From: Candidatus Kaiserbacteria bacterium
Lineage (GTDB): Bacteria > Patescibacteriota > Minisyncoccia > Phycocordibacterales > Phycocordibacteraceae
Reading direction: 5' to 3'
DNA: 57,631 nt
Assembly: GCA_011322135.1 (NCBI GenBank)
Contig: DRNP01000043.1
Coordinates: 1 to 57,631, forward strand
Shown: positions 4,507-54,100 of the stretch, one piece after another
Numbering within the stretch: position 1 is the stretch's first letter
How the letters are laid out: each line of letters opens with the position of its first letter
Translations under genes and position numbers: made by a program
Notes under the pieces: model-generated
What the model was told of the DNA's origin: nothing
Databases searched by the model: none
Seen by the model: the letters and a program-made list of their open reading frames with translations, nothing else

Positions 4507-4587
4507 AACTATATTTTTCTGAATTCCTAGTCTGCACATTCGCCGACATACTTAAAAATAATAAAGTGCCGGTGAGTGTACAGGGTT

Positions 4588-20753: not shown

Positions 20754-21320
20754 TTATAATCCCGAAGCCGTTATGCCACGATTGATACGAGCAATATACG
20801 CTCCCCTATCTTTCTCAATGGTTTCTAAAACATGCACAACATTATCATTATTTACTACAGGTAGTTCTCCCGCATCCAATCCAAGAATTCGCAAGAATCG
20901 AAGCGACACCAAACATTCGGCAGAGTCATGCAATTTTTCCGGCATATCGACAAGTGTTTGAAAGAAATCATGCATTATGTGGAAAAAACGCGAATCGATT
21001 GATTCACAAGGAGCAAGTCGCAACAAGAAACCCGCTACACGCCCTGCACGTTCACGCTCCACTGCTCCCAATAAACTAAACCAGCTCGTATCAAGTACCG
21101 CTCCCGAAATCCTCCAACTTTCTTTTCCACGCAAAAGTATTACATCGGATTCTGTAAATGTTTGTAAAGCGCAAGCGAGTTTTGCTCCCTGTTTTCGCAC
21201 ACTTTGCGCACGTGCGTGTATCAAGCCAAGCTCATCTGTCAAAAGCACTATACCGGCGCTCGCTTCGGATATAGGATAACGTTTAAGTGCAATCGCTTTT
21301 GTAGCGTATCTATGTCGCAT
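20754..21320 (-). CDS. recO: Short RecO-like DNA repair protein
   Basis: N-terminal OB-like pattern AIALKRYPISEASAGIVLLTDELGLIHARAQSVRK. Overlaps the ileS stop by 11 nt. Shorter (188 aa) than typical RecO. Confidence 0.5.
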   Translation of the reverse strand: MRHRYATKAIALKRYPISEASAGIVLLTDELGLIHARAQSVRKQGAKLACALQTFTESDVILLRGKESWRISGAVLDTSWFSLLGAVERERAGRVAGFLLRLAPCESIDSRFFHIMHDFFQTLVDMPEKLHDSAECLVSLRFLRILGLDAGELPVVNNDNVVHVLETIEKDRGAYIARINRGITASGL

Positions 21321-24300
21321 CGTTTGTTATCGAAAAATGTATCTCTCCGAAAGAAAGTTTTGCCGTGTGTTGTGCATCGCTACCTGCATCAAACGTTATG
21401 AGCGATACTCCTGCAATCGTTTCCTTTTCAAGCAGTGCCCTGCCATTTTCTTCGATAGAAATACGTACCGTGTCAGTAGGTGAAAGTCCCGCTGATTTAC
21501 GCGCTTCCGCAAGTGCCCGAGTAAACTCGCGAACGTCACCTTCACGAACCAAGTCATCTGTAATTTTTGTATCAAGAGAAAGTTTTTCAGCTTTTGTGTT
21601 CACTTTTTTTACATTCACTTCATCTGCCAAGATTGTGGCAAATTCTCTTGAGATATTTCCCGGCACGGATAATGCAGAGAGTGGTTGACGTACTTTGATG
21701 CCTTCTTTTTGTCGCAACATAAGAGCTTCCGAAGCGAACGTTCTGACACGCTCCATCTCGGCAAGTGTTTCTTTGTCATGACCTGACACAAAAGAATTCA
21801 CCAAGCGCAGAGCAAATGAAAGTTTTTCTTCCGGCCAACTCGCCAGATGTACGCTTTCCGGATCGGCATCCGTACGTACGTTTTGGAAAACCTCTTCAGC
21901 CATAAAAGGTGCCAGTGGTGCTATCAAAAGTGATATGGTACGTAATGTGTCACGAAGCGTATTTAGTGCGGAAGAATCTCCTTCTCGCGCACGGTCACGA
22001 ATACGTCTCACATACCACTGCGACAAATCTTCTAAAAGTTTTGCGATTGTACGCGATGCTTCGAAAAGTTTGTATTCATCAAATGATTGCGTAACAGTGC
22101 GCACGGTTTCTTTGGTACGTGCAAGCATCCATCTGTCAATTATTTGCATGTTTGTGCTGTCTTTCTTTTGAACATTCTTAAACAGCGAATAAAACTTCGC
22201 ACTGTTTTCAAACCACGACAAAGTGCGCGCCACCTCGCGAATTGTTTTGCCATCAAAACTCTTCGACTCTCCGGGCTGGTTTACGCTATACATCCAGAAA
22301 CGCAAAGTATCCACTCCCCACTTTGCCATTGCTTCCCATGGATTTATTACATTCCCTTTTGACTTCGACATTTTGCGACCCTTATCATCAAGCAAATGCC
22401 CCAGGCAAATGACATTTTTATATGCGTGTCCTCGCCCCGTCAAAGTTCCAACCGCATGAAGTGTGTAAAACCACCCACGCGTTTGGTCAATAGCTTCTGA
22501 AATAAAATCTGCAGGATACCCGTGCCCTTCCACCCACTCTCTATTTTCAAAAGGATAATGTTCTGATGCAAAAGGCATTGCTCCCGAATCAAACCACACG
22601 TCCATGACCTCTTTTACACGATGAAGTTCCTCGCCGTTTTCACTCTCAAGCACAACATCATCTATATACGGACGATGTAAATCGAGCTCGTATTTTTCAT
22701 TATGCGGAAGCGGTACAAAATCAAGAGGAACAACCTCCGCGTTATTGACTTCCGGTATTTCCATAGCTTTCTTCTCAGACAACCCCTGCGCCACCGAGCG
22801 GAGCGCCCATATTGTCCGACCGTGCGATACAAGTAAAATACGCTTTCCGCTATAGCGTGACTCCAGCTCATACAGTAAGGCTCCCGTTCGATGCTTTACA
22901 TCATTTAATGTTTCGCCTCCTTCCGGAGCATTATCAAAACGGTCTTCAAATCTTTCAAAAAAACTCTCATATCCTTTTAATTTCTTTCCGTCAAATATAC
23001 CCGTATCTATCTCTCGCAAACGGTCTTCCAAAAGTACATGCGTTTCTGATACACCGAGTTCTTTTGCGAGTATTTTTGCAGTCTCTCTGGTGCGTGCAAA
23101 AGGTGATGTAAAAATGATGTCAACGCCTCCGTTTTCTTTTAATCCTTTTGCCGTTTCCAAAACTTGTGCTCTGCCCGATTCTGTTAAGTGGTCGGAGCTT
23201 GCGATGTTTGCAGACGTGCTTGTTATTTGTTCAATATTACTCTGCGATTCACCGTGACGAACAGCAACATAAACGTTGTGTCCTGTTTTTGTACGCTCCG
23301 CGAGATCGCTTAAGGAACCGATAACAACGCTCTCGGATCCGTCAGCATTTTCCCACACAGGCAAAGGAGTTCCCCAATACCTCTCACGACTTATCGCCCA
23401 ATCTTTCGCTCCTGCAAGCCACTCGCCGAAACGACCTTTTTTGATATGTTCCGGTTCCCAATGAATATGCTCATTCTCCGCAAGCATTGTCTCTCGTAAA
23501 TCATTCATGCGTATGTACCACGAATCACGTGCATAATAAATGAGCGGAGTCTTGCAACGCCAGCAAAAAGGATAACTGTGCTCATATTTATTTTTTGAAA
23601 AAAGAATTCCTTTCCCTGCCAAATCTTTTATTATGTCGACTGCGACTTCTTCATCTTTTACAAAACGCCCTTCCAGGAAACCTGTACCCGCAATAAACCG
23701 TCCGTCCGCACCAACGACATGTACTTTCGGCAAACCGACTTCCGTACCTAATACAAAATCGTCTTGTCCATACATTATCGCCGTATGTACGATTCCTGTT
23801 CCGTCTTCAGCGGTAACAAACTGTGCCGGATACACTTTGTGAGCTTTTTGAAATTTCGTCTCTTCTTCAGCGGAAGCAAGAGCGCGCGCAAAAGGATAAA
23901 GTGCTTCGTATGACATCCCTACGAGTTCACTTCCGAGCGTTTCTTCAGTGATGCGATATGTCTCGTCACCAAAAACCGCCTCCAATCTATCTTTTGCGAG
24001 AATAAATCTTTTTGTTTTTCCTTCTGTTTCTTTTTCAACCGTAACGTATTTCATTTTCGGATTTACGGCAAGCGCTACGTTGCCCGGAAGTGTCCACGGA
24101 GTTGTCGTCCACGCAAGAAAATACGTATTGTGTTTACCGGAGACCAAAAACTCAACCGTAACTGAAAGGTCTTTTACGTCTTCATACCCCTGCGCAAGCT
24201 CGTGCGAAGAAAGTGCTGTACCGCAACGAGCACACCACGGCACAACTTTATAGTCCTTATATAATCTTCCGCTTTTTGATATGTGCTTCAAAATAGACCA

Positions 24301-24909
24301 GAGCGATTCAATATATGTAGCATCGTATGTAAAATATGCTTTCCCCTGATCAACCCAATATCCCATGCGCTCTGTAAATTTTCGCCACTCATCTATATAT
24401 TTCCAAACGCTTTCCCTGCATTTTTTGTTAAAAGCTCCAATACCGTACGCCTCGATATCTTTCTTGCCGGAAAATTGCAAACTCTTCTCCACTTCCAATT
24501 CAACAGGAAGTCCGTGAGTGTCCCAACCTCCGCGACGACGCACGTGGTATCCTCGCATCGTCTTATATCTCGGTATCGCATCTTTGAAAGCGCGCGCCTC
24601 CAGATGATGAATGCCCGGACGCCCATTTGCAGTTGGCGGTCCCTCGTAAAAAACAAACTCTCCTTTAGGTGACGGCTTCTCCAATGACTTTTCAAAAATA
24701 TGATTTTCTTTCCAAAACTCCAACGTTGCTTTCTCTCGTGTGGCGGTTTTTGATTCTGCAAACGTATCAAAATCTACAGAGTTATCCGACTCGCCACTGT
24801 ACCCGTTTTTTTCAACGTGCTGTGAATTCGAAACCGAATTATTTGCCACTTCAGCGCTTTCAAACGCCGTGTCTGTTCTTTTTGTATGTGACTTTTTCAT
24901 ATAAATCAT
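21310..24909 (-). CDS. ileS: Isoleucyl-tRNA synthetase with an inserted histidine-phosphatase (PGAM-like) domain
   Basis: PPTANGRPGIHHLEAR (HIGH), editing CP1 (TTTPWTLPGN), WAISRERYWGTPLPVW, KMSKSKGN. Residues ~545-728 (22726-23277) carry RHGESQSN...SPFARTRETA...GGETLNDV...VSHGRTI. Confidence 0.9.
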   Translation of the reverse strand: MIYMKKSHTKRTDTAFESAEVANNSVSNSQHVEKNGYSGESDNSVDFDTFAESKTATREKATLEFWKENHIFEKSLEKPSPKGEFVFYEGPPTANGRPGIHHLEARAFKDAIPRYKTMRGYHVRRRGGWDTHGLPVELEVEKSLQFSGKKDIEAYGIGAFNKKCRESVWKYIDEWRKFTERMGYWVDQGKAYFTYDATYIESLWSILKHISKSGRLYKDYKVVPWCARCGTALSSHELAQGYEDVKDLSVTVEFLVSGKHNTYFLAWTTTPWTLPGNVALAVNPKMKYVTVEKETEGKTKRFILAKDRLEAVFGDETYRITEETLGSELVGMSYEALYPFARALASAEEETKFQKAHKVYPAQFVTAEDGTGIVHTAIMYGQDDFVLGTEVGLPKVHVVGADGRFIAGTGFLEGRFVKDEEVAVDIIKDLAGKGILFSKNKYEHSYPFCWRCKTPLIYYARDSWYIRMNDLRETMLAENEHIHWEPEHIKKGRFGEWLAGAKDWAISRERYWGTPLPVWENADGSESVVIGSLSDLAERTKTGHNVYVAVRHGESQSNIEQITSTSANIASSDHLTESGRAQVLETAKGLKENGGVDIIFTSPFARTRETAKILAKELGVSETHVLLEDRLREIDTGIFDGKKLKGYESFFERFEDRFDNAPEGGETLNDVKHRTGALLYELESRYSGKRILLVSHGRTIWALRSVAQGLSEKKAMEIPEVNNAEVVPLDFVPLPHNEKYELDLHRPYIDDVVLESENGEELHRVKEVMDVWFDSGAMPFASEHYPFENREWVEGHGYPADFISEAIDQTRGWFYTLHAVGTLTGRGHAYKNVICLGHLLDDKGRKMSKSKGNVINPWEAMAKWGVDTLRFWMYSVNQPGESKSFDGKTIREVARTLSWFENSAKFYSLFKNVQKKDSTNMQIIDRWMLARTKETVRTVTQSFDEYKLFEASRTIAKLLEDLSQWYVRRIRDRAREGDSSALNTLRDTLRTISLLIAPLAPFMAEEVFQNVRTDADPESVHLASWPEEKLSFALRLVNSFVSGHDKETLAEMERVRTFASEALMLRQKEGIKVRQPLSALSVPGNISREFATILADEVNVKKVNTKAEKLSLDTKITDDLVREGDVREFTRALAEARKSAGLSPTDTVRISIEENGRALLEKETIAGVSLITFDAGSDAQHTAKLSFGEIHFSITNDAT

Positions 24910-26713: not shown

Positions 26714-28105
26714 TTATACGCTCGTGAGCGCACCGCGTTTTGAAAGAAAATCATAATTGGATAGCGCTTTTTGCACATACATACGTAGACCTCTGTTGTG
26801 CACATGGTTAATCGATTTTTCAAATTCTCGTTTGTATAATTTCGGAGTCTGCGTAAAAACATGTCCAAAATAAGAATACGCTTCTGTCGGGAGATGGTGC
26901 GACATTGCGATAAATGCCAAAATTTCTTTATGCAAAATATCTGGCGGAGTTTTTGCAATCCTTTCCTCAGCAATCACCAGCTCTCTTTGTGAAAGTCTCC
27001 CTGAAAGTTGCGTCAAATGCTCGATTGCAACAAAATAAGCCACCTTGTGATGTTCTATTCCTGAAACTTTTTCAACCGACTTCGGGATTAAACCTTTTGG
27101 TAAAAGTGCCTCCACTTTTTCTGATAAATGACCAACTCCACCGGGAGCAAAGAGCGCCGGAGTTAACTGGTATGGTCCAAATGACGCTAATAAATCGTGC
27201 ACAGACGGAATCGCATCGATAAAATCCGTACCAGCATTACGCAAAAGAAAATCAAGTACGATGGCATTTGTCTCTCCGTCCGCTGAAGGCATAAGCTCTG
27301 TAAGAGAACACGCAATTAATTTTCTGGAGCTTATTCGAGATGCCATTTTTTCAATAAGAGCACGTCTTGCGCGCGGAAACTTTGCATCATTTCTAAGCTC
27401 ATACATTGCGTTCATAAATGCACGCTGTACGCTTTTTGTGGCATGAACTATATCCTTGGAATATTCATCGAGTGAAACTTTTTTAGCTTTACTCTGACTA
27501 TATGAACAATACAAATGTTCTGCCAAATCCATTAAATCTTTGTGTTCTTTCAAAAAAAGCTCGCGCACAATTTTCTCTTTTTCCGGCGAGTCAGTATGTT
27601 TATCGAAGCCAAACTTCATACGCCACAACCGCGCAAGGTTCGCTTTGAAATCTATTTGCAACTTTTCCGGTATAGTGCCCTTTTCATCAACACCTAAATA
27701 CATAGCATACAAGTTCGAAAGTTTTTTACCTTCAAGTGCTCCCACTGAAAAGGAGCGCGTTTTTTCTTTGTCGTGAAGAAAGGTGTACTTTTCTAAACCA
27801 TCGCCCTCCTCCGAAACATTTTGTTCACGTAATTTTTGCTTTAAATCTTTAATCTTTTTATCGGTAATACTTTCCTCTTTTTTCTTTGGTTTATCTTTTC
27901 GAGTGTGAGCGTTTGATGCAAGCTTGTCCGCAGTTTCTATGCCGGTTATCGCACTTATTGCAGTAACGAGAATACCGAGCTCTTTCAAAAACTCTCTGCG
28001 TGTCTTTTTCGTTCCGGTTTTTTCATGCTCCTTGCGCGCATGAGACACTGCGCTTTTGTCATTTTCGTATGCGCGTTGCGTGTTAAACGATTCCATCATA
28101 TACAA
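26714..28105 (-). CDS. Hypothetical protein with twin-arginine-like signal
   Basis: KKTRREFLKELGILVTAISAITG matches (S/T)RRxFLK plus an h-region. The rest is helical with no motif I can assign. Confidence 0.55.
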   Translation of the reverse strand: MYMMESFNTQRAYENDKSAVSHARKEHEKTGTKKTRREFLKELGILVTAISAITGIETADKLASNAHTRKDKPKKKEESITDKKIKDLKQKLREQNVSEEGDGLEKYTFLHDKEKTRSFSVGALEGKKLSNLYAMYLGVDEKGTIPEKLQIDFKANLARLWRMKFGFDKHTDSPEKEKIVRELFLKEHKDLMDLAEHLYCSYSQSKAKKVSLDEYSKDIVHATKSVQRAFMNAMYELRNDAKFPRARRALIEKMASRISSRKLIACSLTELMPSADGETNAIVLDFLLRNAGTDFIDAIPSVHDLLASFGPYQLTPALFAPGGVGHLSEKVEALLPKGLIPKSVEKVSGIEHHKVAYFVAIEHLTQLSGRLSQRELVIAEERIAKTPPDILHKEILAFIAMSHHLPTEAYSYFGHVFTQTPKLYKREFEKSINHVHNRGLRMYVQKALSNYDFLSKRGALTSV

Positions 28106-28117
28106 ATTGTTGCAATT

Positions 28118-29371
28118 TTATACAAATGATTCGGGAATAGGATGCGCGGTTGCCATTTTTTGTACTGTCTTTCGAACATTCTCCACGCTGTCTTTTTTTG
28201 TAAGAATATCTATCATTAGATTAGCTACAAGTGTAACGTCATCTTCTGTAAAACCGCGTGTGGTGAGAGCGGGAGTTCCGAAACGTATTCCGGAAGGGTC
28301 CATCGGTTTTCTTGTATCATTTGGAATGATATTTTTATTAAGAGTAATTCCTGCTTTATCAAGCAATGCCTCTGCATCCGCTCCTGAAACACCAAATGAC
28401 TTCCACGCGTCAAGCAAAATAAGATGGTTTTCCGTACCGCCCGCAACCATTTTCGCACCGTGCTCTGCAAAAACATGTGCCATTGCTTTAGCGTTTTTTA
28501 TAACCTGCAAAGAATATGTTTTGAAACTCGGGCGCAGTGCTTCACCAAAAGCTACCGCTTTCGCGGCAATATTGTTCATGTGCGGACCTCCTTGAAAGCC
28601 CGGGAATACACTTTTGTCTATTTTTCTTGCGAGCTCTGCACTGTTTCGTGTCAATATCATTCCTCCGCGCGGTCCGCGCAAAGTTTTGTGTGTTGTCGTT
28701 GTCAATAAGTCAAAACCGTAATCAAAAGGGTTCTTTACAGCACCTCCTGCAATAAGCCCTGCAATATGTGCGATATCCATCACAGCAAGCGCTCCGGACT
28801 CTTTCGCAATCTCTACAAATTTTGCATAGTCAAGCTCTCTAGGATATGCGGAAAAACCTGCAAGTAGGATTTTTGGCTTCACTTCATTTGCAATGCGACG
28901 CATTTCATCATAATCGATATCTCCGGTCTCTACGTCTTTCATTTGATAATGCGCAAAATTAAAAATCTTTGTGAGATATGTTACCGGATGTCCGTGCGTC
29001 AAATGTCCGCCATGAGAAAGTTCCATTCCGAGCACAGTATCCCCCGGTTCAAGTAAAGCAAAATACATCGCGATATTTGCGTTAGCTCCACCAAGAGGTT
29101 GCACATTTGCATATTCGGCATTAAAAAGTTTTTTAGCACGTTCTATCGCAGTTGTTTCTACCATGTCTGTAAAATCCTGCCCGCCATAATATCGCTTCTC
29201 CGGATAGCCTTCCGCGTATTTGTTTGTAAGTGTTGACGCAAGAGCGTCACGCACCGCATGCGACACATAATTTTCAGATGGTATAAGCTCTAATCCGTTT
29301 TCTTCACGCCCATCTTCTCCGACAACAGCAGTATAAACATCCATGTCTTCTCGTTTAAGAAAATCGTACAT
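28118..29371 (-). CDS. glyA: Serine hydroxymethyltransferase
   Basis: LELIPSENYVS, TTTTHKTLRGPRGG (PLP lysine motif), SHGGHLTHG. Confidence 0.95.
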   Translation of the reverse strand: MYDFLKREDMDVYTAVVGEDGREENGLELIPSENYVSHAVRDALASTLTNKYAEGYPEKRYYGGQDFTDMVETTAIERAKKLFNAEYANVQPLGGANANIAMYFALLEPGDTVLGMELSHGGHLTHGHPVTYLTKIFNFAHYQMKDVETGDIDYDEMRRIANEVKPKILLAGFSAYPRELDYAKFVEIAKESGALAVMDIAHIAGLIAGGAVKNPFDYGFDLLTTTTHKTLRGPRGGMILTRNSAELARKIDKSVFPGFQGGPHMNNIAAKAVAFGEALRPSFKTYSLQVIKNAKAMAHVFAEHGAKMVAGGTENHLILLDAWKSFGVSGADAEALLDKAGITLNKNIIPNDTRKPMDPSGIRFGTPALTTRGFTEDDVTLVANLMIDILTKKDSVENVRKTVQKMATAHPIPESFV

Positions 29372-29387
29372 AATTTTATATTTACAG

Positions 29388-29816
29388 TTATACTCCGGTC
29401 GTACCGAAACCGCCTCTGCTTTTCGTGGCTAAAGTATCAACCTCATCCCATTCGACACGGTTAAAAGGCAGGACAAGTATCTGCACAATACGTTCACCTC
29501 GTAATACTTTTACCGGCTCATGTGTGAAATTATAAATTACAGCATTATACTCATCATCATCCCCTGAAAAATCTTCATCGCAAATACCAACACCGTTTGC
29601 CAGCATCAATCCTCGTTTATGCAGTGAACTTCTGGCAACAAGCAAAACAAAATGACCGCGTGGTGGTTTTATTGCGATATTTAGAGGAACCATTCCGCAA
29701 ACTCCCGGAGCAATCTCCGTATCGACTCGCGCAACACAATCCATTCCGGCGGCACCGGCAGTTTTATATTCCGGAAGTTCTAGTTTTTTATCTATTTTTC
29801 GTATCAGCACTTTCAT
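29388..29816 (-). CDS. dut: dUTP diphosphatase
   Basis: ORF 29388..29834; likely start MKVLIRK at 29816. AGAAGMDC, RSSL..RGLMLANGVGICDEDFSGD, GGFGTTG C-terminal motif. Confidence 0.85.
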   Translation of the reverse strand: MKVLIRKIDKKLELPEYKTAGAAGMDCVARVDTEIAPGVCGMVPLNIAIKPPRGHFVLLVARSSLHKRGLMLANGVGICDEDFSGDDDEYNAVIYNFTHEPVKVLRGERIVQILVLPFNRVEWDEVDTLATKSRGGFGTTGV

Positions 29817-29878
29817 ATAAACGTATTGTAGCACATCACGATTTTTGAAACGTCAAGACTAATTCGCGAGTCTATACT

Positions 29879-30802
29879 ATGTTAAACTGCGATTATTCAA
29901 TAATGAAGTCAATCACCTTAAAGAAGGTTCATTCATTCGGTGCGGTGGAGGACATGCTCCATAACATAATCTTTCGAGGTCTATACAATACTAATGGCAA
30001 AAACATATCCCCGTACAAAAACGCCCACATATCACTTACAAAAGTTTACCCGCAAACATCTCTTGGTACTTCTCCTAACATACACATCGGACGTAAACAA
30101 GAACCTCTTTTTACTCCCCAACCTACAATTTACGAAAACCAAAGCGCCATCATTGAAAAAGTCGACTCTTTCTTACTTGAGCACGATATAAAAATGAGTG
30201 ATTTACATAATGCTATTGAATATACCTGGGAAGGTCGAGGAACATTTCACATTCTTCCTCCTGTTATAGAAAAACACACGTACCAAATGAAAAACGGGTA
30301 TCTCGATATTTCTCAACTTTTAAAACGATTCAAAAATGCATATATAAAAGATGCTCTCGGAAATATGCACACGCTGTCCAGACGATACTTGCGTTCATTT
30401 TATATCGACGAAGTAAGCTCTATAGAACACCTTGATGTTTTTAATTCAAACGTACCAATACTCAACTACGGTCTCGGACATAACGGTGACTTCACTTTTT
30501 ATATAGTATGTGATGGCGCCCACCGTCTTGATTACGTTCTGGAAAAAATAAAAGAACCAATGACAGTGCTGTTGGTCGAGCCTAAAAAAGATGCCTCTCT
30601 GCTATATCCATACTACGCGCTACCTGTTCCCTTTCGTCCATCGATACGTCTTTCAAGCAAAAGATCTGAAAAGATGTACCGCAAACTTGAGCGGGATAAA
30701 ATACATTTGTTAAATGACTTTATAAAAAAGACACTTCACTACGACTGGGAAGCCGGCGGACTAAGCGTAAGTAAACTGAGAAGCAATGTCGACATTTATT
30801 GA
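29879..30802 (+). CDS. Hypothetical protein, ParB/Srx-fold-like (DGxHR motif)
   Basis: FYIVCDGAHRLDYVL (DGxHR, as in ParB/sulfiredoxin/SerK-type domains) and an upstream ISLTKVYPQTS strand-like element. First gene of the operon. Confidence 0.45.
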   Translation: MLNCDYSIMKSITLKKVHSFGAVEDMLHNIIFRGLYNTNGKNISPYKNAHISLTKVYPQTSLGTSPNIHIGRKQEPLFTPQPTIYENQSAIIEKVDSFLLEHDIKMSDLHNAIEYTWEGRGTFHILPPVIEKHTYQMKNGYLDISQLLKRFKNAYIKDALGNMHTLSRRYLRSFYIDEVSSIEHLDVFNSNVPILNYGLGHNGDFTFYIVCDGAHRLDYVLEKIKEPMTVLLVEPKKDASLLYPYYALPVPFRPSIRLSSKRSEKMYRKLERDKIHLLNDFIKKTLHYDWEAGGLSVSKLRSNVDIY

Positions 30803-31613
30803 TAAAAACAATTCTGCTCGTGCTACAACTCGCTCCGGTAATGTCTACACGGGAGTTCACATTGCAAGTACGACACATATTTTAGATATTTCGGCGGAGC
30901 TTTCCGCACTTGTAAATGCCGTGCACAATTCTGATTTGTATGTAACTGAAATGGAAACCGTACAAACCAAAAACACCGCGCCATCGCCACTTGTACTCAA
31001 GATTATTGCAGACCACGGCGCGCGCACGGGCGTACCTATTCATTACATACTGCGAGACGAATACGGAAAGATTCATTTCGAGACAAAAGATGCTAATCAC
31101 GAACTCGGTTCATATATTCAAACAAACTCCATATTAAAATCTTTTGGAAACAGATTTCCGTCTACAGCAAAAATACTCGCAAAAGATGTTGCTCAGGATA
31201 AGCTTGAATCAACATTAAAAAAATATGCCGTCGATGGGATATCACGAAACTTCCCAACATACGATGGAGCATCCGGGTACGGTTCCGCCGTCCGCACAAA
31301 AAACGGAGATATTTATTTTGGTGGTCAATATTCCGCATCAGACCAACGCTTGGGAGTTCATGCAGAAATGGCAGTGCTAACACAAGCAATCTCAGATGGA
31401 GCAACAGGATTTACACATATCGCTCTTGCATCAAGTAAATTTAAAGATGCACCCGCAAGCCCGTGCGGTTGTTGTCGACAATTTATTTCTGAAGCGTCGC
31501 ACGAAACAAACAGCAACCCAAACATTCTTCTATTTGCATCAAACTCAAACTCTTCGAGCGCTTACACTATCGATGAGCTACTTCCTGTACAATGGACTAA
31601 CAGAGCATCATAA
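30786..31613 (+). CDS. Tandem-domain cytidine/deoxycytidylate deaminase-fold protein (N-domain degenerate, C-domain catalytic)
   Basis: C-domain: VHAEMAVL (res 191-198) and SPCGCCRQFI (res 225-234). N-domain has the CDA scaffold but ISAELSAL and SPLVLKII in place of the zinc ligands. Start overlaps the upstream stop by 17 nt. Confidence 0.75.
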   Translation: MSTFIDKNNSARATTRSGNVYTGVHIASTTHILDISAELSALVNAVHNSDLYVTEMETVQTKNTAPSPLVLKIIADHGARTGVPIHYILRDEYGKIHFETKDANHELGSYIQTNSILKSFGNRFPSTAKILAKDVAQDKLESTLKKYAVDGISRNFPTYDGASGYGSAVRTKNGDIYFGGQYSASDQRLGVHAEMAVLTQAISDGATGFTHIALASSKFKDAPASPCGCCRQFISEASHETNSNPNILLFASNSNSSSAYTIDELLPVQWTNRAS

Positions 31614-31627
31614 TACATATTATAAAT

Positions 31628-34039
31628 ATGTCTGCAAAAACAAAACAACCGCATTTTCCAATAGTCGACTCGCTTCTTCTAACTCCAAAAAATGCTGATA
31701 AAGGATATATCGGCATCTGCACAAACACTTCCGCACCGGGTCAAGTTTATAACGACATTCGAGAAAGCTTGCGCGAAAGCGTTTCTGTTCTGGGTCCTTT
31801 GATTGTAAACAGAGACGGAACCGAGCGCATGATTCTAAATACACTTGTGCACCCTACAATGACATACCTGATTCTCTTTTCCGAAGAGTCGCTTACTTTT
31901 TCGCCAAGCACAAACCTCTTGCTCGCACTAAAAAACGGCTTCGATAAAAAACGCTCTAGCAACTATATTGCCGGAGGTAAAGCCATGTCTGCATACTACC
32001 CGAATATCTCACCGGCAATTCTGGATACTTTCAGAAAAAACATTACCGTCATTCCTTTGTTTATGTCTCAAAATAAAGACAGCTCTGATATTATCGAAAA
32101 ATATATAGAGTGGCTTGAGGATTCTTCTCGTCTTCCTAAGAATATTCTAGAGTTTTTAAAAGAAGCAAATACAAAAAAGAAAAAATATTTTGATCAACTT
32201 AATGAACTTGTGGCGATGCTCGATGAACTGCCCAAAAGTCCAAAAGCTACGATAGCTCTGGACCCTAAAGACTTTCAACAACTTCAACCTCCACGAGTCG
32301 ACATAAAGAAAAACGATACCCCCCTTCCGGCTCCTTTTCGAGCAAGTATCGAGGACGGTCACTTACGGCTCGATATACGAATAAATAATCATACTTATTT
32401 TATTCGTGGAGATGATGATTTTCGTATTGAATATACTCTGATGCGTTTTCTCGGCAAAGACAAATCCGCTCTTTCTCCAATTGAGCAATTTTTAATAGGA
32501 GCTGAACTAAATCGCATAAACGTCGAACTCTCTCTTTCGACGAGGACTCCTTCGTTTGTTCTTGAAAACAACATTTCCGGCACCGAGGAAATATTTCTGG
32601 AACCGACATTGTCGCTCATGCCGGACAAAGAATACTATTACAAGATAGGACTGTCTGATGACGAGCTTTCCGTTATGTGTATGGCATTTGACACATGCGC
32701 CGAAGTTTTTGATTTACGTTCAAAGGGCATCACCGGCATTTTTACATGGCTTTCTGAAAAAAACCGTTTCCAAAATTACGAAATGGATATATTGCATCGA
32801 ATGGATATCGGCGGACAAATCGGTCGTGCTCGCATTGCGCTTCGGCTGGGATATTCTTTTATACAAGACTTCCCCAACATATTCAAAATAAACACAAAGG
32901 AGCTTCCTCTCGTCATTGCAGAAAGTGATTCTTTTTTGGACACTCATCGAAACCTTTTAATGAAAGTGTACACAGAAGGGATTACAGAAGCTCACGGAGA
33001 CGAGCGTAAAGGACTTGCTCGCACAGCTATTGCTCTGGCGGTATATCGCGATACAAAAAATGCTTTTTCAAAAATGCCAGCCATCTACGCACAAGGAGAC
33101 CTATCTCCGGAAGCAATGCGCGAATCATACAAAAAACAATTACTTCGTTTTGATTATGACGGCGACTACAGCTATGGAGAACGCACACGAGCACACTTTG
33201 GTTTTGACCAACTTAAAAAAACTCAAGAACTCTTAAAAGACAACCCTTCACAAGCAACTATTGTTCAGCGTTTTGATCCGATAATTGATATGGGTATATC
33301 AAAAAATCCTGATACCGGTCAAATGGAATATACACACGACCCGTGTCTTACACACGACATATTTTTTATAGAGCATGGAAAATTACATTCATTTCACATT
33401 GCTCGTGCGCACAATTTACCAAATGCATATCCTGAAAATGTTTTTGGGCTGTACGACGCCTATGTTTCCACAATACGAGACACGCTAAAACTAAAGCATG
33501 GTGACATGTACATGCTTTCTTCTCGCGGAAATATTCTTTTGCTAACAGAAGAACAGCGCGTGCGAAAAATAATCGCAGAACCTTCGAAACCAATGAGTGG
33601 TGTAAATCGTGAAAGCGGACCGGCGCTCATCGGTAAAAACGTACTCCCCGCAAAGCACTCCGGCGTCTCATATCTAACGGCAAGTCTTACAGATGAGAAA
33701 CTTTTTAATCATTCGTTTATCGAACGAATACGCAATTTTGAAGGAGTTGATACGCTCGAGCGCGCTATAAAATACCTAAAAACAAAAGGTGCGTCTCACA
33801 ACAATCCTATTTTAACTACACACCAAGCAGGTATAACGAACCCGCAAGATGACCATCTCGCTTTCTTTCAAGCAAACGTCTTTGGTAAAAAAATACAAGT
33901 AACCGCCATATTCTCAAACCATAAACCAAACCCTCAAATTGATATACGTATTGTTAGTGCGCTGGCGGGACAATATGCATCCGAACTCTCGACACCTCTC
34001 GGAGAAACAACTATATTTTATATCAATGGAGAATCTTAA
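31628..34039 (+). CDS. 803-aa fusion: MtrA-like/DUF4346-like N-domain + unknown middle + divergent thymidylate-synthase/dCMP-hydroxymethylase-fold domain + C-terminal extension
   Basis: Res ~433-650 align by eye to ThyA: [92 protein letters not shown]. Cys573 codon is at 33344-33346. The N-terminal [33 protein letters not shown]...LLALKNGFD...[10 protein letters not shown] resembles MtrA-like domains. Confidence 0.65.
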   Translation: [803 protein letters not shown]

Positions 34040-34682
34040 TTTTCATGTAATCGGTTTTGATCTTGATCACACTCTTTATCCAAAGTCGAAAAAGATAGAT
34101 GAAAAGATACAGAGTTATCTTTACGGGAAAATTGCCGAAAATAAAAAAATAACATTATCAAAAGCACGGTCACTTTTTGATGAACGTTATAAAAACGGAT
34201 CCGGAACAAGCGGTGGGCAAACACTTCGAGATATTGGAATTGAAAATGGGTCGGAGATTATTCAAGAAGCTCTGGAAAATGCGGATATTTCATCCATGCT
34301 AACCCCCGACAAAAATGTAAACAGTCTTATTTCGCAAATTGTTTCAAAATATAAAAATGTAGATTTAATCACCGGTTCAAACATGCACCAAACTCACATA
34401 AAACTGAACGCCTTGGATATACCTCTAAAAACTTTTTCACACATTATTACCGCAGATGACGGATCAAAATCAAATGGTGATAATTTTAAAAAATGGCTGT
34501 CTCTGTATCCGAGTTACAACCCTAAACATTTTTTGTATATAGGAGACCGCGCGCGTCTTGATTGCGATGTTCCCTCCGCTCTTGGGATACACACTGCTCT
34601 GGTATATGTAAAAGAAGTCGATGAAAAATTACCGTGTACTCAATATCATTCGCTCGTCGACACGCTTCAAGATTTATTATGA
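34026..34682 (+). CDS. HAD-superfamily hydrolase, pyrimidine 5'-nucleotidase-like
   Basis: ORF 33939..34682. Likely start MENLNF at 34026, overlapping the upstream stop by 14 nt. Motif I GFDLDHTLYP, motif II LITGSN, motif IV YIGDRARLD. Confidence 0.75.
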   Translation: MENLNFHVIGFDLDHTLYPKSKKIDEKIQSYLYGKIAENKKITLSKARSLFDERYKNGSGTSGGQTLRDIGIENGSEIIQEALENADISSMLTPDKNVNSLISQIVSKYKNVDLITGSNMHQTHIKLNALDIPLKTFSHIITADDGSKSNGDNFKKWLSLYPSYNPKHFLYIGDRARLDCDVPSALGIHTALVYVKEVDEKLPCTQYHSLVDTLQDLL

Positions 34683-34734: not shown

Positions 34735-35316
34735 TTATTCCCATTTGTAAAAGACAATCTTCCCATCCGCTTCTTTTACGATAAGAGGAATAACGATGTT
34801 TTTAGGAACGGTCATTTTGTAAAATAACTTTTTATAAATGGTCGGGAGCCCGGGATAGCTCCCACTTTCTTTTTTTTCAGTTCGGATTTCAATACCATTG
34901 GTCGGCAACCCTACTAAAAAAGGAAGCTCTTCCCGAAGAAGTCTCTCCAAAGATTCGTTTGGGTTTTCACCCTGTTTCATCTTTTCTCCAACAGAGGCAT
35001 CGAGATGCCTCTCCCTTTCTCGACCGTCCTGCAGTATCTGTTTATATTCCCGCAGAACCTTCTCGTTCTGATAAACATAGAGGCAAATTACGCTTATGAT
35101 CCTGACGAGCTCTGCTTGATCTATCGCAAAAACACACTCCCCTGTTTTTGCCTCTTCGAGCAAGCACTCTACACTTTTGGCAGACCCAATTCCATATTCA
35201 TGAATTGGGATTTTGTAAAAGTTCATCAAGCGTAAAAGATCTTCTTTTGACCGCGGTATCTTTGTTTCCCATAACCTGGAATCCATATCACTCCTCCCTT
35301 TTTTGGAAAGTTGCAA
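34735..35316 (-). CDS. Hypothetical protein with degenerate Nudix-box-like segment
   Basis: VGEKMKQGENPNESLERLLREELPF compared with the Nudix box Gx5Ex7REUxEExGU: the GE, R and EE positions are kept, others are substituted. Monocistronic between two terminators. Confidence 0.4.
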   Translation of the reverse strand: MQLSKKGRSDMDSRLWETKIPRSKEDLLRLMNFYKIPIHEYGIGSAKSVECLLEEAKTGECVFAIDQAELVRIISVICLYVYQNEKVLREYKQILQDGRERERHLDASVGEKMKQGENPNESLERLLREELPFLVGLPTNGIEIRTEKKESGSYPGLPTIYKKLFYKMTVPKNIVIPLIVKEADGKIVFYKWE

Positions 35317-35459: not shown

Positions 35460-35879
35460 TTACTCAACACCAATGCCCATTGAGCGCGCAGTACCTTCAA
35501 TTATTTTATCTGCAGATTCAAGAGTCGACGCATTTAGATCCGGCATTTTCTGCTCTGAGACCTCGCGAACCTGTGCTTTACTTATTGTTCCTGCGCGAGA
35601 AACTCCGGGTTTTTGAGATGCTTTTTCCATTCCGAGTTTCTTGAGAATAAGTCTCGATGCCGGAGGAGTTTTTAAAATGAAGTCAAACGAGCGGTCATCG
35701 TATACCGACAACTCAACAGGGATGATATCTCCCATACGATCACGTGTCGCCTCGTTAAACTTATTTACAAAATCACCAATATTAATACCTGCCGGACCAA
35801 GTGCCGTACCAACAGGCGGAGCAGGTGTTGCCTTCCCTGCGGGAATCTGAAGTTTTATTTTTTTTACTACGTTTGCCAT
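35460..35879 (-). CDS. rplK: 50S ribosomal protein L11
   Basis: [28 protein letters not shown]. Confidence 0.95.
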
Positions 35880-35898
35880 ATATATTCGGAACTCTACA

Positions 35899-36468
35899 CT
35901 AAAGTTTCTTTACTTGCAAAAAATCCAGTTCGACCGGTGTCTCACGACCGAACATTGCGACCATAACTTTTACCTTTCCTCTCTCTTCATCTACCTCACC
36001 AATCTTGCCTTCAAGCTCCTTAAATGGTCCGTCTACAATAGTAACCGGATCATCTTTTACAAGGTCAATCTTGTGTTTCGGAGCGTCTGCATTCATGCGC
36101 TTCATCAAAGAAGCAACTTCTGCCTCGTCCATCGGCACAGGAGTTGTTCCTGAACCGACAAAACCTGTAACACGTGGAGTGTTCCTAACCACAAACCACG
36201 AATCATCATCCACAACCATACGTACGAGAATATATCCCGGATAAATTTTCTCTTCTTCTACAACACGTTTTCCACCTTTTACTCGAATCTTTTTTTCAGT
36301 CGGAACAATAATATCGAATATTTTATTTTCCATTCCAAGTGACTCAACGCGTTGTTTTAGATTACGCTCCACCGCTTTTTCATATCCGGCATACGTATGA
36401 ATTGCGTACCATTGTATACCTTCAGATCCATTTGTGTCTAAGTGTGTTTGTTTGTTTACATTATCCAT
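35899..36468 (-). CDS. nusG: Transcription termination/antitermination factor NusG
   Basis: [21 protein letters not shown] domain; C-terminal KOW ([29 protein letters not shown]). Confidence 0.9.
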
Positions 36469-39062: not shown

Positions 39063-39653
39063 TTAATATTCCGGCACTTCTTCTTTCACTTCACTCGCGT
39101 GGTTTGCAAGACGTGCGAGCGCATAAAGGAGTGATGAAAGACGATTCAAATACACAAGGGATGCTTCTCGTTGCTCTTTTACGGGAACCGTCACTTCCCC
39201 GTATTGTGTTTTAACACCGTCGCGCTCAAAACAAAAAGCTACCTCTCGCCTTTCCGCCCGTCTTGCAATTGCACGCGCCATATCAAAAAGTGCAGACCGC
39301 TCCGTACTACCCGGAATAAAAAAAGAATGTATCGGTGGTAATATTTTTTCAATATCTGCAATAATCTTTTCCATCGTATCCACTTTCTCTTGTGTAATAT
39401 GTTTATCCGCACCCGCAATCTCTGCCTGTATCGTAAAAAGATTTTGTTGTATTTCTGTAAGTATCTCGTACACGCTCCGCTCGCCTACCGCAAACGATTT
39501 GTCTTTTCCTATTTTCGATTTACACAAGCCTATGTACGAATTGAGTTCATCTACAGTTCCCAGTGCTTCAGCGAGTTTTTCGCTTTTTGAAAAACGCTGG
39601 TCACAGCCAAACGCACATGTTGTTCCTGAATCTCCTTTACGTGTATAAAGCAT
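39063..39653 (-). CDS. ATP:cob(I)alamin adenosyltransferase, PduO type
   Basis: MLYTRKGDSGTT N-terminus, DELNSYIGL, and a helical bundle typical of the PduO/MMAB family. Confidence 0.85.
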   Translation of the reverse strand: MLYTRKGDSGTTCAFGCDQRFSKSEKLAEALGTVDELNSYIGLCKSKIGKDKSFAVGERSVYEILTEIQQNLFTIQAEIAGADKHITQEKVDTMEKIIADIEKILPPIHSFFIPGSTERSALFDMARAIARRAERREVAFCFERDGVKTQYGEVTVPVKEQREASLVYLNRLSSLLYALARLANHASEVKEEVPEY

Positions 39654-51103: not shown

Positions 51104-54100
51104 CTAATAATCTATCTGCACAAATCCCTTCTCCGTTTTCACACTCGGAACATACAATCCATTATACGTCTTTAAGTGCTCGCGACGGAAGTGTGGTTTT
51201 GTGAACAAGTTTATTCTGTGTTTGTGTGCAGATGAGATAACATACGTTTTATTAAGGCGTGGAAAATATGTAGCGACAATGTTTTTGGTCGGCGTTTTGA
51301 TATCCGAGACAAGGGTTGTGTAGTTACCTTGTCTGTTTGTATTCCAAAAGTAATGGAGCGTAGCGGTGGCGTTTGTTGTAGTGCCATTTGAATAACTGAG
51401 AGAACGCATTGTAAGTATTGCGAAACCCGGACCAAATGAATGGCGAACAAGTTTGCTGTGGTAATTTCTGTGATGACGTTTGCGGTCACGTCTATAATCG
51501 CGATCATGATTATTATCGTGGGGTATCTTTTTCGCGAATAAATTTGGAATATGTAAGTTGTTGAAACTCCTCTCTATAGATCGTCCGTCCTTATGCCACG
51601 AGTCATCTAATTTTAAAAATGGAAATATTTTATGATATTTGTGATGGCGACTAAAACTTGGATATTTAGCTGTGGCAATAGTGAGCCAATTGCCAGCCTG
51701 GTCGGTAATCGTGGTGGAGGTTGCGGTAGAAGTGACTGTTGTTGATGATGTCTCATCTATGCCTGTAATTTGTATGCTTTTGGTAGAAGTACTGAAACCA
51801 ATTATAGCTTCTGGCGGAATGATGTCAGGAATTACAATACTTCCCTGCTTTGCATTATATTGAGTGTACGTTACACCGTCGCCACTGTAATTAACTTTTA
51901 GAGTACTACTTGCGGTCGGGTCGGTCGCCGGGTTGATTGCCAGCGTAGCAATAGTTGATGTCGCTGAAGGAATAGCGGCGAAAGTGGTAGACGCAACGAC
52001 AGTGTTTCCATTTTGTTCTTTAATATCTAGTGCAAAGGAACCGCTACCGATACCACGCATCACCACCTTTCCTGTCATACTTTGAGGCACCGAGAGCCAT
52101 TGCACTTCACCGAAACGACGATAATCAACTCCTGGAATATTGAACTCTGTTGATGTTGCGGTAGCACCGGTATAATTACCGGAAGTATTTATGAAACCGA
52201 GTGTGAGTGGAGAATGAAGAATAAAATGAAGCCGTGCCATGTTACCTGTGTAAGCGGGAGTTGAAGTACTAATGTATTTTGGAAGTGATGCAGTGGTTGA
52301 TGCTGTGATAATGGATGATAGAAGTGTACGAAGTTCAGAGACGTTAAATATATTGTCATGATGAGTACCAAAAAGTGCATCTGCTTTTTTCGAGTATCTA
52401 AGCCACCCATTGTATTTATTTAGATTCACCCAATACCTAGTATCCTTTCCACCATCAGCCCATAGTGCGCTTGGTGTTACAACTGTTCCATCTCCATCCA
52501 TGACCATCCTTGGTATGTATGATATGTGCGTTGATAAATTACAGCCATTGGATAACCATACTTTTGACTCTTCTGCGAAAGCCAGACATTTAAAAAATGG
52601 CAACTTCTCGTAATGAATCCCAGCTACAGTCTCATTTCCCCATCCAGCTATCGTGTAAAGATGTACACTGGTGGGTGGCGTCCATTTATCCAATGAAGCA
52701 TGGGTTGCTTTTGCGGCATGTAGAAGATTTACATTTGCTATCTGTGGATCAATTAGATCGTCATATGCGGGCACGTTACGCGTGCCTGCAGAATCGGTCA
52801 TAAAATTATACAAACCCTGAGCCCAGTTGATATTGCTTCCATAAGCATTGCTCCATGTTGGCAAAGTTGATGAAGAAATTGTAACGACAGGAGTAGAAAC
52901 GAGTTGGTTGTCGCTGTTTTTGAAATTATCAGCGTAAGAAAAATATGATTGCGATGGTAGAAGGTCATAAGTCATCGGCATGTTTTGTGCCAAGTCACGA
53001 GCTTTCTTGTTAGAAAGAAGAGTCGGTATACCAGCACCATATCCGTTAAGAAGAACCCCTATTGCGTCTGGTGTTCCGAGTTGTGGCGTGGCAATGAGTA
53101 TGACGTTATCAATGAGCCGTGCCGTGGTTGTCGCTCCAAGTTTTTGCATAAGTGCTTTGGCAAGTAATCCTCCGTTGCTGTGAGCAATGATTGTAACTTT
53201 TCCGGTTGGTGAAGTTGAGGCGAGATGTTTTAAGGTCTCAATAATGTATGGGTCATGCCCGGGCTTTGGTGCCTCAATATAACTAATGTGCCCATCTGCG
53301 AGTTTCCTTCCCTTGGTAATAAGGGTGTTGTATCCAAGTCGCCAGTCATAGGGAGTTGACGTCGCAATAATGTGGTACTTGGACTGCCAGTTTTTCATTT
53401 CTTGCAATAAATCTTTGTATACCGTATGATGAATCGCTTTATACACCATATGTACAGTCACTTGGGAAATAACTTTTGAAACTGCAATATTCTGGTCAAT
53501 GCTCGTTCCATCTGAGTTTAGTTTTAGTGAATTAGCTACAGTATCACTTGCAGGAGTCCACACTTTTTGATGAATCGCTTCGTCGTATAATGTGCTTCCC
53601 TCAATGCCGGGGAGGAAGAGGACGTTGGAGACTTTGGGGACTTTTGGCAAGCTCGTATCTTTGACGACAATAGTTCCTGCAGTGCTACAGTAATAATCAC
53701 CAACCCACGTATTGCAATAACCATTTGCAACTATGGTGCCTGTAAATGTAGAAGTCGCACCTTCTGCGTATAGCGCGATGCGACCGCCACCGCCAGCTCC
53801 AGAGACAATAGCACTACCTCCCCCGCCACCGTTTGCGTTAAACACGCCATTTCCAACGAGTGTCTTGGTGTGCACGAGTATGCTTCCACCGCTCCCGGAG
53901 GTATCGCCTTCGACGGAAATCGTACCGTTGTTAGTGAGCGTATCTGCGATATTGAGTGCGATTGCGCCACCACCGGCTCTGTAGCCACCGCTCCCAAAGT
54001 CGGTCGGGTTGTCAGCACTGCCATACGTCGAGGTTGCGCTGTTTCTGTACCCGATGCCACCATAGCTTGCTCCTGCGTATTGGTCACCATGTGCTGTGCC

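Follow-up and report, generated by a model that had tools for sequence, protein, structure and literature searches.

A stretch of 57,631 nucleotides from a Candidatus Kaiserbacteria bacterium (GenBank assembly GCA_011322135.1, contig DRNP01000043.1; hereafter the window) was analyzed with emphasis on the third gene of a compact four-gene cassette. This gene encodes a protein of 803 residues in which five modules were recognized, including a domain related to thymidylate synthase (TS) that retains the catalytic cysteine and a second, cysteine-less TS-like segment at the C-terminus. The gene and its modules are as follows, with all coordinates given as positions of the window.

31628..34039, + strand: five-module TS-like protein of 803 residues (from the list of open reading frames, ORFs)
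31685..32122, + strand: MtrA-like Rossmann-type module, approximately residues 20-165 (NF002126, Pfam MtrA, PDB 5laa)
32330..32551, + strand: DUF4346-like repeat a, approximately residues 235-308, three strands and two helices (hhalign 84%, E-value 7e-6)
32603..32875, + strand: DUF4346-like repeat b, approximately residues 326-416 (hhalign 97.7%, E-value 1.9e-12)
32903..33577, + strand: catalytic TS domain, approximately residues 426-650 (TIGR03283, hhalign, Foldseek)
33344..33346, + strand: TGT codon of Cys573, the presumed nucleophile of the DPC motif (invariant in both ortholog samples)
33722..34036, + strand: cysteine-less half-TS domain, approximately residues 699-803 (hhalign, hidden Markov model [HMM] of the C-terminal segment, alignment)
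33797-33805, + strand: codons of the invariant His724-Asn725-Asn726 of the half-TS domain (at the ThyA R126'-R127' columns in the alignment)

Modular organization of the 803-residue protein

The protein is identical to a database entry named 'hypothetical protein ENJ75_02825 [Candidatus Kaiserbacteria bacterium]'. In total, 139 relatives were recovered by a word-seeded search, nearly all of about 800 residues and 48-73% identity, from Kaiserbacteria, Zambryskibacteria, Sungbacteria, and other Paceibacteria-type bacteria of the candidate phyla radiation (CPR); these are annotated as hypothetical by NCBI and, in some cases, as 'thymidylate synthase' by JGI. The labels 'Saccharibacteria', 'Peribacteria', 'Gammaproteobacteria', and 'Methanosarcinales' carried by some records of metagenome-assembled genomes are probably loose bin labels. 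No description of the 803-residue protein, the four-gene cassette, DUF4346, or the ParB-CE partner was found in the published literature. Conservation was monitored in two samples, (i) 57 orthologues; and (ii) separately, 48 sequences covering CPR bacteria and DPANN archaea. In the latter sample 104 positions were found to be invariant at an overall identity of about 40%, including D571-P572-C573, R593, N604, Y516-G517, and H724-N725-N726, and fixation on this scale argues that the 803-residue protein is an enzyme under selection.

The relationship of residues ~426-650 to TS was examined by family models, profile alignment, and structure prediction. The NCBIfam model TIGR03283 (methanogen-type TS) was found to match residues 435-610 (E-value 6.8e-16, 58.4 bits), and an hhalign comparison of the TS domain with 100 archaeal-type TS domains was returned at 99.7% and an E-value of 1e-26. 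When the 57-orthologue profile was aligned by hhalign to Escherichia coli ThyA (E-value 1.6e-3), the register paired YGERTR with YGKQWR, FDQL with IDQI, DPC with APC, and PEN with PFN. An AlphaFold2 (AF2) model built from the 57-orthologue alignment (mean predicted local distance difference test score [pLDDT] 86.6, predicted TM-score [pTM] 0.77) was used to search the PDB by Foldseek, and all 50 of the best matches listed were TS-fold structures (probability 1.0, ~250 aligned columns, E-values down to 6e-9). These included viral, bacterial, and human ThyA, the CMP hydroxymethylase MilA, and the phage flavin-dependent dCMP hydroxylase AfhB, the last of which gave the top target-normalized TM-score (9iqu, 0.76). 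Searches of the PDB by sequence, whether with the protein or with the family profile, returned MtrA only and never TS; the kinship to TS thus had to rest on the NCBIfam model, hhalign, and the fold search. Taken together, the predicted model and the profile comparisons assign residues ~426-650 to the TS fold and place the domain in the TS superfamily by its fold and catalytic core. A preliminary description of the ORF, made from the sequence alone, had proposed this fold and a by-eye register to ThyA, and had named structure prediction and the conservation of Cys573 among orthologues as checks; each of these is borne out by the results above and by the invariance of the cysteine described below. 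Re-reading of the sequence likewise found the ORF and the residues quoted there to be correctly placed, namely C573, L574, R593, A594, N596, N604, Q542-A543, and S632-R633-G634-N635-I636-L637.

The residues of the catalytic domain were then compared along a graded alignment that had ThyA at one end and the 803-residue family at the other, with stand-alone methanogen-type TS, archaeal fusion proteins, and an intermediate tier in between. D571-P572-C573, aligned to ThyA P145-C146, was invariant in all 57 orthologues and in all 48 CPR and DPANN sequences. The equivalents of ThyA R166 (R593), N177 (N604), and Y94-G95 (Y516-G517) were likewise invariant in the 48 sequences, and the register of ThyA Q111 was shared. 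An Asn at the N177 position chooses uracil over cytosine (PMC13326640). R126/R127, S167, D169, H207, and Y209 were lost in the 803-residue family alone, in line with the claim of the preliminary description that many dUMP and folate ligands are replaced. Other positions were gained: the Lys-Glu pair of archaeal TS enzymes was found as Ala-Arg (R465), and K461, R465, and R633 are invariant basic residues new in this family, with R633 two residues ahead of the H207 position. R633, R465, and K461 could rebuild a relocated phosphate site. The equivalents of ThyA L143/A144 in the window protein are the polar H570/D571; however, polar residues (Q, K) also precede Pro-Cys in the archaeal TS domains from MtrA-TS fusions, one of which has thymidylate kinase (Tmk) fused in a close relative, and the L143 position therefore carries no diagnostic weight within this subfamily. 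Like every archaeal-type TS, the protein has neither the W80/W83 segment that contacts folate nor the C-terminus of ThyA, the minimal archaeal core being without the ThyA segments that close over folate. The sugar-phosphate pocket has been rebuilt in a form that is constant across both domains of life, and the exact substrate may therefore differ from plain dUMP.

The C-terminal ~100 residues were found to be a second TS-like unit. Comparison of this segment with the 100 archaeal-type TS domains gave an hhalign match at 97.4% (E-value 1.4e-11, 90 columns), its match to the protein's own TS domain was weak and colinear over 93 columns, and an HMM of the C-terminal segment alone matched genuine TS domains in the correct register. 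Included in the half-domain (~699-800) are the helix that follows the YG-R motif, the beta hairpin at the center, the long J-like helix, and the next strand. In CPR sequences the Cys column is occupied by Gln740, and the R166 column falls in a deletion. The ThyA homodimer has two sites, and each subunit sends R126 and R127 into the active site of its partner. Based on homology to this dimer, we infer that the 803-residue protein packs as a pseudo-dimer within one chain, with a single composite active site. Two other proteins, from the exhaustive search described below, were found to carry related designs. In P0217 (394 residues), the TS domain has no Arg pair and precedes a dead half-TS with 'SRR'; P0217 differs from the window protein in that its pseudo half retains this RR and its catalytic half retains H207/Y209, and in having Asp at the N177 position, by which P0217 is perhaps cytosine-specific. 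P0173 (786 residues) has two TS domains in tandem on one chain. Since P0217 retains the Arg pair in its pseudo half, the His-Asn-Asn replacement in the 803-residue family is no mere by-product of pseudo-dimerization.

The N-terminal module is related to MtrA. NF002126 was matched at an E-value of 2e-10 (40 bits versus the curated 161 bits), Pfam MtrA (PF04208) at 7e-4 (19.7 bits, under the cut-off of 25), and the sequence of PDB entry 5laa (MtrA) at 1e-5 over ~110 residues. The module is thus read as homologous to MtrA, yet it is no member by the curated thresholds. In MtrA, His84 ligates cobalt and is held by Glu54, and Tyr18 stacks on the base (PMC4915002). In the window protein, His84 was aligned with the invariant Phe91, Glu54 with Asn61 (Ser in most orthologues), and Tyr18 with Leu17, the last after the alignment was extended by eye to the N-terminus. 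Because all three are replaced, it is very probable that the module does not bind cobalamin as MtrA does, and cobalamin binding by it is considered unlikely. Compared with MtrA (5laa, 8q3v), the module keeps the G-x-E-(K/R)-x-I-x-N...P motif and the N64/G57 equivalents; it differs in being without the His84, Glu54, and Tyr18 residues and the membrane anchor, and in being fused to a TS domain. A PduO-type ATP:cob(I)alamin adenosyltransferase (PF01923, E-value 9.7e-43) is encoded at 39063-39653 on the - strand, at a distance of 5 kb from the fusion gene. Evidently, cobalamin is handled by this organism, although the MtrA-like module is without the cobalt-ligating His.

The middle region is attributed by profile alignment to two tandem copies of DUF4346. 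With the DUF4346 of 28 archaeal fusions as the hhalign reference, repeats a and b were matched as listed above, and repeat b was found to carry the motif LHRxDxGxQIGRAxIA..[8 protein letters not shown]. An HMM of the repeat-b segment matched the C-terminal DUF4346 of archaeal MtrA-TS fusions. The Pfam model PF14251 (PterinBD-DUF4346) gave no direct match on the window protein and was above the cut-off in the relatives P0153 and P0175. When residues 166-432 were modeled alone (pLDDT 89.5), the repeated unit appeared as three strands and two long helices, and a Foldseek search of this model against the PDB gave no match (best E-value 0.19). Elsewhere DUF4346 is joined to pterin-binding proteins related to dihydropteroate synthase (DHPS) and MtrH, as in a C-terminal match to TIGR00284. 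A third TS copy in this region was also considered and was rejected, since hhalign of residues 171-425 against the TS domain gave short, chance-level matches and the PDB held no match to the fold.

In relation to the preliminary description, its MtrA-like N-terminus survives, weakly, in the three matches given above, while its DUF4346 assignment must be moved: this domain lies not at the N-terminus but in the ~270-residue middle that had been left unassigned. Its second, cysteine-less TS segment is upheld and is longer than proposed, extending over ~699-800. The pseudo-dimer that it suggested is strengthened by the colinear half-TS, by His-Asn-Asn at the R126'-R127' columns, and by the design of P0217.

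Relatives, distribution, and gene cassette

An exhaustive HMM search of 1.84 billion representative proteins returned 327 matches, which fell into four groups: (i) the full-length family; (ii) a second tier of 811-906 residues (P0147, P0151, P0153, P0156, P0158, and P0166); (iii) a large set of archaeal proteins of ~470 residues (Aenigmatarchaeota, Thermoprotei, and others); and (iv) stand-alone TS of ~210 residues. Within the second tier, P0147 and P0153, the two members scanned, have MtrA-like, DUF4346, and TS modules in the order of the window protein, and MtrA-like and TS modules alone were detected in P0151, P0156, P0158, and P0166. A degenerate C-terminal TS half was indicated for P0147 and P0153 only, by manual C-terminal alignment and, for P0153, also by the extent of the profile match; the C-domain HMM detected a half-TS in none of the six second-tier proteins. 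P0153, the sole second-tier protein examined in these respects, keeps D169 and is without the four-gene cassette at its locus.

The archaeal ~470-residue proteins were informative with regard to parentage. P0175 (MFB6076482.1, Aenigmatarchaeota; named thymidylate synthase by NCBI) carries MtrA, TS, and DUF4346, all three Pfam models being above their cut-offs. The TIGR03283 cut-off was passed by P0175 (203.6 bits) and by P0159 (190.8 bits). In P0275 (MFB6089089.1, 660 residues), thymidylate kinase is fused at the end of the archaeal fusion. The Tmk fusion and the archaeal relatives that pass as TS are good circumstantial evidence that the parent architecture makes dTMP. Compared with these fusions, the window protein is homologous in all three modules, sharing the MtrA-like module without the cobalamin His, DUF4346, and a minimal ~200-residue TS domain with the P-C nucleophile, YTYG, R166, and N177. 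The archaeal proteins differ in having one DUF4346, placed after the TS domain, and no second TS half, whereas the window protein has two DUF4346 copies ahead of the TS domain and an added pseudo-TS half. They also keep RR, S167, D169, H207, and Y209, all of which are changed in the window protein. By this module and residue comparison, the 803-residue family is interpreted as a derived offshoot of its closest relatives, the archaeal MtrA-TS-DUF4346 thymidylate synthases, in which DUF4346 was duplicated and moved before the TS domain, a dead TS half was added, and the substrate pocket was remodeled. The distance to ThyA (E. coli; 1aiq, 4xsd) is greater. The fold (Foldseek E-values of 6e-9 to 1e-7) and the Cys/R166/N177/Y94/Q111 register are shared; however, ThyA is a homodimer with two sites, whereas the window protein has one chain with a catalytic domain and a dead half-domain, carries ~430 extra N-terminal residues, is without the W80/W83 segment and the ThyA C-terminus, and has R126'/R127', S167, D169, H207, and Y209 replaced.

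A scan of one genome per GTDB species identified the full five-module protein at 53 loci in CPR bacteria and DPANN archaea. The protein was carried by 11 DPANN genomes (Woesearchaeota, Nanoarchaeia, and Iainarchaeum) at 40-46% identity. In two Woesearchaeota contigs an archaeal Spt5 lies beside the gene (L051 13071-14465; L056 10848-11477), with an archaeal-type L11 also present in L051, which indicates that these two contigs are truly archaeal. The bacterial and archaeal copies were reciprocally monophyletic in a neighbor-joining tree rooted with the second tier, and two such clean clades date the cassette either to an old CPR-DPANN exchange or to common descent. A search of 2.9 million viral contigs yielded no relative.

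The 803-residue gene is the third of four tightly coupled genes, joined by overlaps of 17 nt and 14 nt and one 14-nt gap, with the fourth gene overlapping its stop by 14 nt. The other cassette genes and the close neighbors are the following.

28118..29371, - strand: serine hydroxymethyltransferase (SHMT; Pfam SHMT on orthologous neighbor genes, recovered with the window ORF as query)
29388..29834, - strand: dUTPase, divergent from the cassette (Pfam)
29879..30802, + strand: cassette gene 1, ParB/Srx-like protein of 307 residues with a CDGxHR motif (weak PF24392 ParB-CE match)
30786..31613, + strand: cassette gene 2, two-domain cytidine-deaminase-like protein (Pfam and NCBIfam scans, profile versus PDB)
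34026..34682, + strand: cassette gene 4, haloacid dehalogenase (HAD) hydrolase, pyrimidine-5'-nucleotidase-like (Pfam and NCBIfam scans)
34735..35316, - strand: protein of 193 residues with a weak NUDIX match in its orthologue, a frequent cassette neighbor

The weak ParB-CE Pfam match of gene 1 was seen in all 17 members tested. When the gene 1 profile was searched against 5.8 billion proteins, the 120 best listed of 242 were all of ~300 residues and 'hypothetical' where named. In the gene 2 protein, a degenerate deaminase-like half is N-terminal and the catalytic half is C-terminal, an order that we take to be the reverse of that in E. coli cytidine deaminase. The C-terminal domain keeps the HxE and CxxC zinc/catalytic residues in 15 of 15 sequences, and the nearest solved relatives found by a PDB profile search were nucleoside cytidine deaminases (E-value 1e-14). 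What we take to be the ribose-contacting N-x-E of Bacillus subtilis Cdd was aligned to Q-Y-S in this protein.

The cassette was scored with HMMs built from the window's genes. The upstream pair (genes 1 and 2) was present in all 39 CPR loci that had sufficient sequence and in 9 of 10 DPANN loci. Gene 1 lay upstream of the 803-residue gene in 39 of 39 CPR and 8 of 10 DPANN loci, and downstream in one DPANN locus (L049). The HAD gene was found in 37 of 45 CPR and 10 of 11 DPANN loci. One metagenomic contig joins the deaminase-like protein and an 800-residue TS-like protein in a single reading frame (P0125, 1111 residues; L008 1568-4903); at the same locus the upstream ParB-like gene is seemingly split into two ORFs of 115 and 185 residues. 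Housekeeping genes (nusG-rplK, argS, dut, and glyA) are among the neighbors. Within 5 kb, dUTPase, the commonest of these metabolic neighbors, was found in 23 of 48 CPR loci and SHMT in 18 of 48; a Nudix-like gene was present in 17 of 48, and at one locus an SHMT-thymidylate kinase-dUTPase cluster adjoins the cassette. ThyA, the ThyX motif, and FolA were not detected in the ~1 Mb of flanks at 60 loci (10-kb flanks; the rest of the genomes lay outside the search), and the sole ThyX-motif regular-expression match in those flanks, an L042 ORF, was taken as chance. The nusG-rplK pair was observed to adjoin the cassette in 33 of 48 CPR loci (window 35460-36468), and archaeal Spt5/L11 genes lie beside Woesearchaeota copies, such that the cassette neighborhood is alike across two domains of life.

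Candidate function and competing explanations

Thymidylate synthesis is essential, and the textbook enzyme classes are ThyA and ThyX only. We put at about one in two the chance that the 803-residue protein forms the thymidylate of Paceibacteria-type CPR bacteria and of several DPANN archaea, acting as a single-site, pseudo-dimeric TS-type uracil-C5 methylase. By analogy with TS chemistry, the Cys573 thiolate would add to C6 of the uracil ring, with Asn604 (the ThyA N177 equivalent) picking uracil and Tyr516 (Y94) and Arg593 (R166) in their usual TS roles. The C5 carbanion would capture a one-carbon unit from a methylene-pterin made by the neighboring SHMT, this unit would be resolved to a methyl group, and the product would be a 5-methyl-uracil (thymine) nucleotide. 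The C-terminal half-domain would stand in for the second TS subunit, with His724-Asn725-Asn726 reaching in as R126'/R127' do. The MtrA-like and DUF4346 modules, inherited from the archaeal fusions, would most likely hold or present the pterin carrier, with no cobalamin involved. With its partners (ParB/Srx-like and NTP-binding, cytidine-deaminase-like, and HAD nucleotidase-like), the enzyme may convert cytosine-derived (deoxy)nucleosides or nucleotides to thymidylate. This reading is favored because of the conserved core of Cys573, Arg593, Asn604, and Tyr516, which a TS-type reaction requires, the neighboring dUTPase, which yields dUMP, the neighboring SHMT, which yields methylene-tetrahydrofolate, and the Tmk-linked archaeal parents. 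The genomic context (dUTPase, SHMT, and once Tmk, together with the Tmk-fused archaeal cousins) points to ordinary thymidylate metabolism, and a small salvage pathway is suggested by the deaminase, the phosphatase, and the NTP-binding-fold protein being strictly inherited together with the enzyme. CPR and DPANN organisms lack de novo nucleotide synthesis, and a salvage pathway would fit.

Several observations weigh against a plain thymidylate synthase. The canonical dUMP ligands are replaced family-wide (S167 by A594, H207 by N635, and Y209 by L637), the folate-contacting D169 is the invariant N596, and the cross-subunit R126'/R127' are N725/N726 in the half-TS domain. In the catalytic half, the Arg pair is Q542-A543 in the window protein and R-A in most CPR sequences sampled. 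Thus, the exchange of RR for QA given in the preliminary description holds for the window sequence and is not a family trait: among six sampled CPR sequences including the window, RA was present in four and KA in one, with QA being that of the window, and ten sampled DPANN orthologues have other residues at this position. No conserved Glu was found at the helix aligned with E58 in the 48 sequences, where the alignment is uncertain. The TIGR03283 score of 58.4 bits is far under the curated cut-off of 174.55 bits, and Pfam TS (PF00303) reached 12.6 bits versus a gathering cut-off of 24.3, with the match on the wrong region. A nucleotidase in the operon is also odd for a simple dUMP-to-dTMP step. 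In view of the sub-threshold scores and the lost ligand residues, the protein should be classed neither with ordinary ThyA nor with the TIGR03283 equivalogs.

The same residues raise the question of whether the substrate is dUMP at all, and keep in play the hint of the preliminary description that it is something other than a plain 5'-monophosphate. The phosphate-clamping Arg pair has become an invariant His-Asn-Asn and the 3'-OH ligands are changed, and on this account the four proteins may form a new CPR/DPANN pyrimidine module that salvages cytosine compounds to thymidylate with a uracil substrate other than plain dUMP and/or a one-carbon carrier held by the enzyme's own MtrA-like and DUF4346 modules; we consider this possible, and put it forward tentatively. 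A specific form, in which the Cys573 one-carbon chemistry at uracil C5 is the same and the substrate is a nucleoside, a ribonucleotide, or another phosphate arrangement, is somewhat doubtful. Its route through the cassette would have the HAD enzyme make the nucleoside, the deaminase-like protein make the uracil form, the TS-like protein methylate it, and the ParB/Srx-like protein re-phosphorylate the product. This would agree with the invariant Asn-Asn after His in place of the cross-subunit Arg pair, which P0217 keeps, with the invariant N635 and L637 in place of the 3'-OH ligands H207 and Y209, and with the change of S167 to Ala. The cassette has a HAD nucleotidase-like gene and a gene for an NTP-binding-fold protein as fixed members, the closest relatives of the deaminase are nucleoside cytidine deaminases rather than dCMP deaminases, and the fusion of the deaminase to the TS-like protein in P0125 suggests consecutive steps. 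However, R593 (R166) is kept and a phosphate site could be restored by K461, R465, and R633, the commonest neighbor is the dUMP-producing dUTPase, the ribose-contact residues of the deaminase are unlike those of nucleoside deaminases, and the assignment of a kinase role to the ParB-like protein is conjectural. We know of no TS-fold enzyme that acts on nucleosides. A polynucleotide substrate was also considered and rejected, as the protein is on the whole slightly acidic, with a pI (isoelectric point) of 6.4, and has no strongly basic module apart from two short linkers, and no RNA- or DNA-editing deaminase was among the PDB matches of the gene 2 protein.

Chemistries other than methylation from a methylene-pterin fare less well. 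The protein might be a C5 hydroxymethylase or another non-methylating TS-family enzyme, comparable to the dCMP/dUMP hydroxymethylases, MilA, and the flavin-dependent dCMP hydroxylases, that makes a modified pyrimidine for DNA, RNA, or a metabolite. MilA (5jp9) and AfhB (9iqu/9iqc, crystallized with dCMP) share the TS fold with the window protein, AfhB 9iqu is the top match by target-normalized TM-score, and the enzyme carries additional fused modules of a cofactor type. Hydroxymethylases are marked by an acidic residue at the L143 position (PMC13326640), and polar residues, H570 and D571, occupy the ThyA L143/A144 positions; yet the archaeal MtrA-TS fusions are also polar (Q, K) before Pro-Cys, and the 9iqu match is accounted for by the minimal TS fold and similar size of AfhB. 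Both MilA and the phage 5-hydroxy-dCMP synthases, to which AfhB is homologous, act on a cytosine nucleotide and carry Asp at the N177 position (PMC13326640), whereas the base-specifying residue of the window family is the invariant N604, an Asn (uracil) and not an Asp. Since the gene context is of a housekeeping type and the viral contigs yielded no homologue, we judge this explanation improbable. An origin in phage or DNA modification was rejected on the same viral result and because the N177/L143 determinants do not indicate a hydroxymethylase. A corrinoid-dependent thymidylate synthase, in which methyl-cobalamin would be bound to the MtrA-like module and its methyl group would pass directly to the C5 carbanion with no dihydrofolate formed, has in its favor the homology of the N-terminal module to the cobalamin-binding MtrA, the nearby PduO-type adenosyltransferase, and the attachment of DUF4346 elsewhere to pterin-binding, DHPS/MtrH-like proteins. 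With the His84-Glu54 dyad replaced (F91; Ser/Asn), L17 at Tyr18, a neighboring SHMT that gives methylene and not methyl units, and no MtrH-like gene in the cassette, it is very improbable. The scarcest chance is given to a catalytically dead scaffold or regulator keeping a TS-like shape: many canonical ligands are lost and the family scores are under the cut-offs, but DPC, R593, N604, Y516, and ~100 other positions are invariant across two domains of life, and the gene shares a tightly coupled operon with a deaminase and a HAD hydrolase that are both intact.

If the 803-residue protein is the cell's thymidylate synthase, it would fill a gap in metabolic models of CPR and DPANN organisms. The family would represent a third architectural solution on the ThyA fold, with one chain bearing a live and a dead TS half behind modules otherwise tied to pterin and corrinoid enzymes, in a cassette fixed in two radiations of ultrasmall, host-dependent microbes of different domains. 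Should the substrate or the carbon carrier differ from dUMP or methylene-folate, new enzymology would be at hand, along with functions for DUF4346, the His-less MtrA-like domains, and the ParB/Srx-like family.

Other features of the window

Between positions 10000 and 48000 the GC skew was persistently negative and nearly all genes were on the - strand, with the cassette among the few + units. Four other genes, all on the - strand, were noted. At 21310-24909, a class I (IleRS-type) aminoacyl-tRNA synthetase of 1199 residues has a His_Phos_1 domain inserted at residues 549-731 (E-value 3e-33), and this insertion in an IleRS-type synthetase recurs in two other CPR genomes (L003 1-1466; L006 14055-17867). 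The ORF at 26714-28105, located between argS and glyA, encodes 463 residues with no Pfam match and a twin-arginine-like N-terminus (RREFLK). Two large proteins each had a single Pfam match at an E-value of ≤1e-4: an LCAT-type lipase/acyltransferase domain in the 1375-residue protein at 51104-55231, and a peptidoglycan-binding domain in the 1142-residue protein at 1111-4539.

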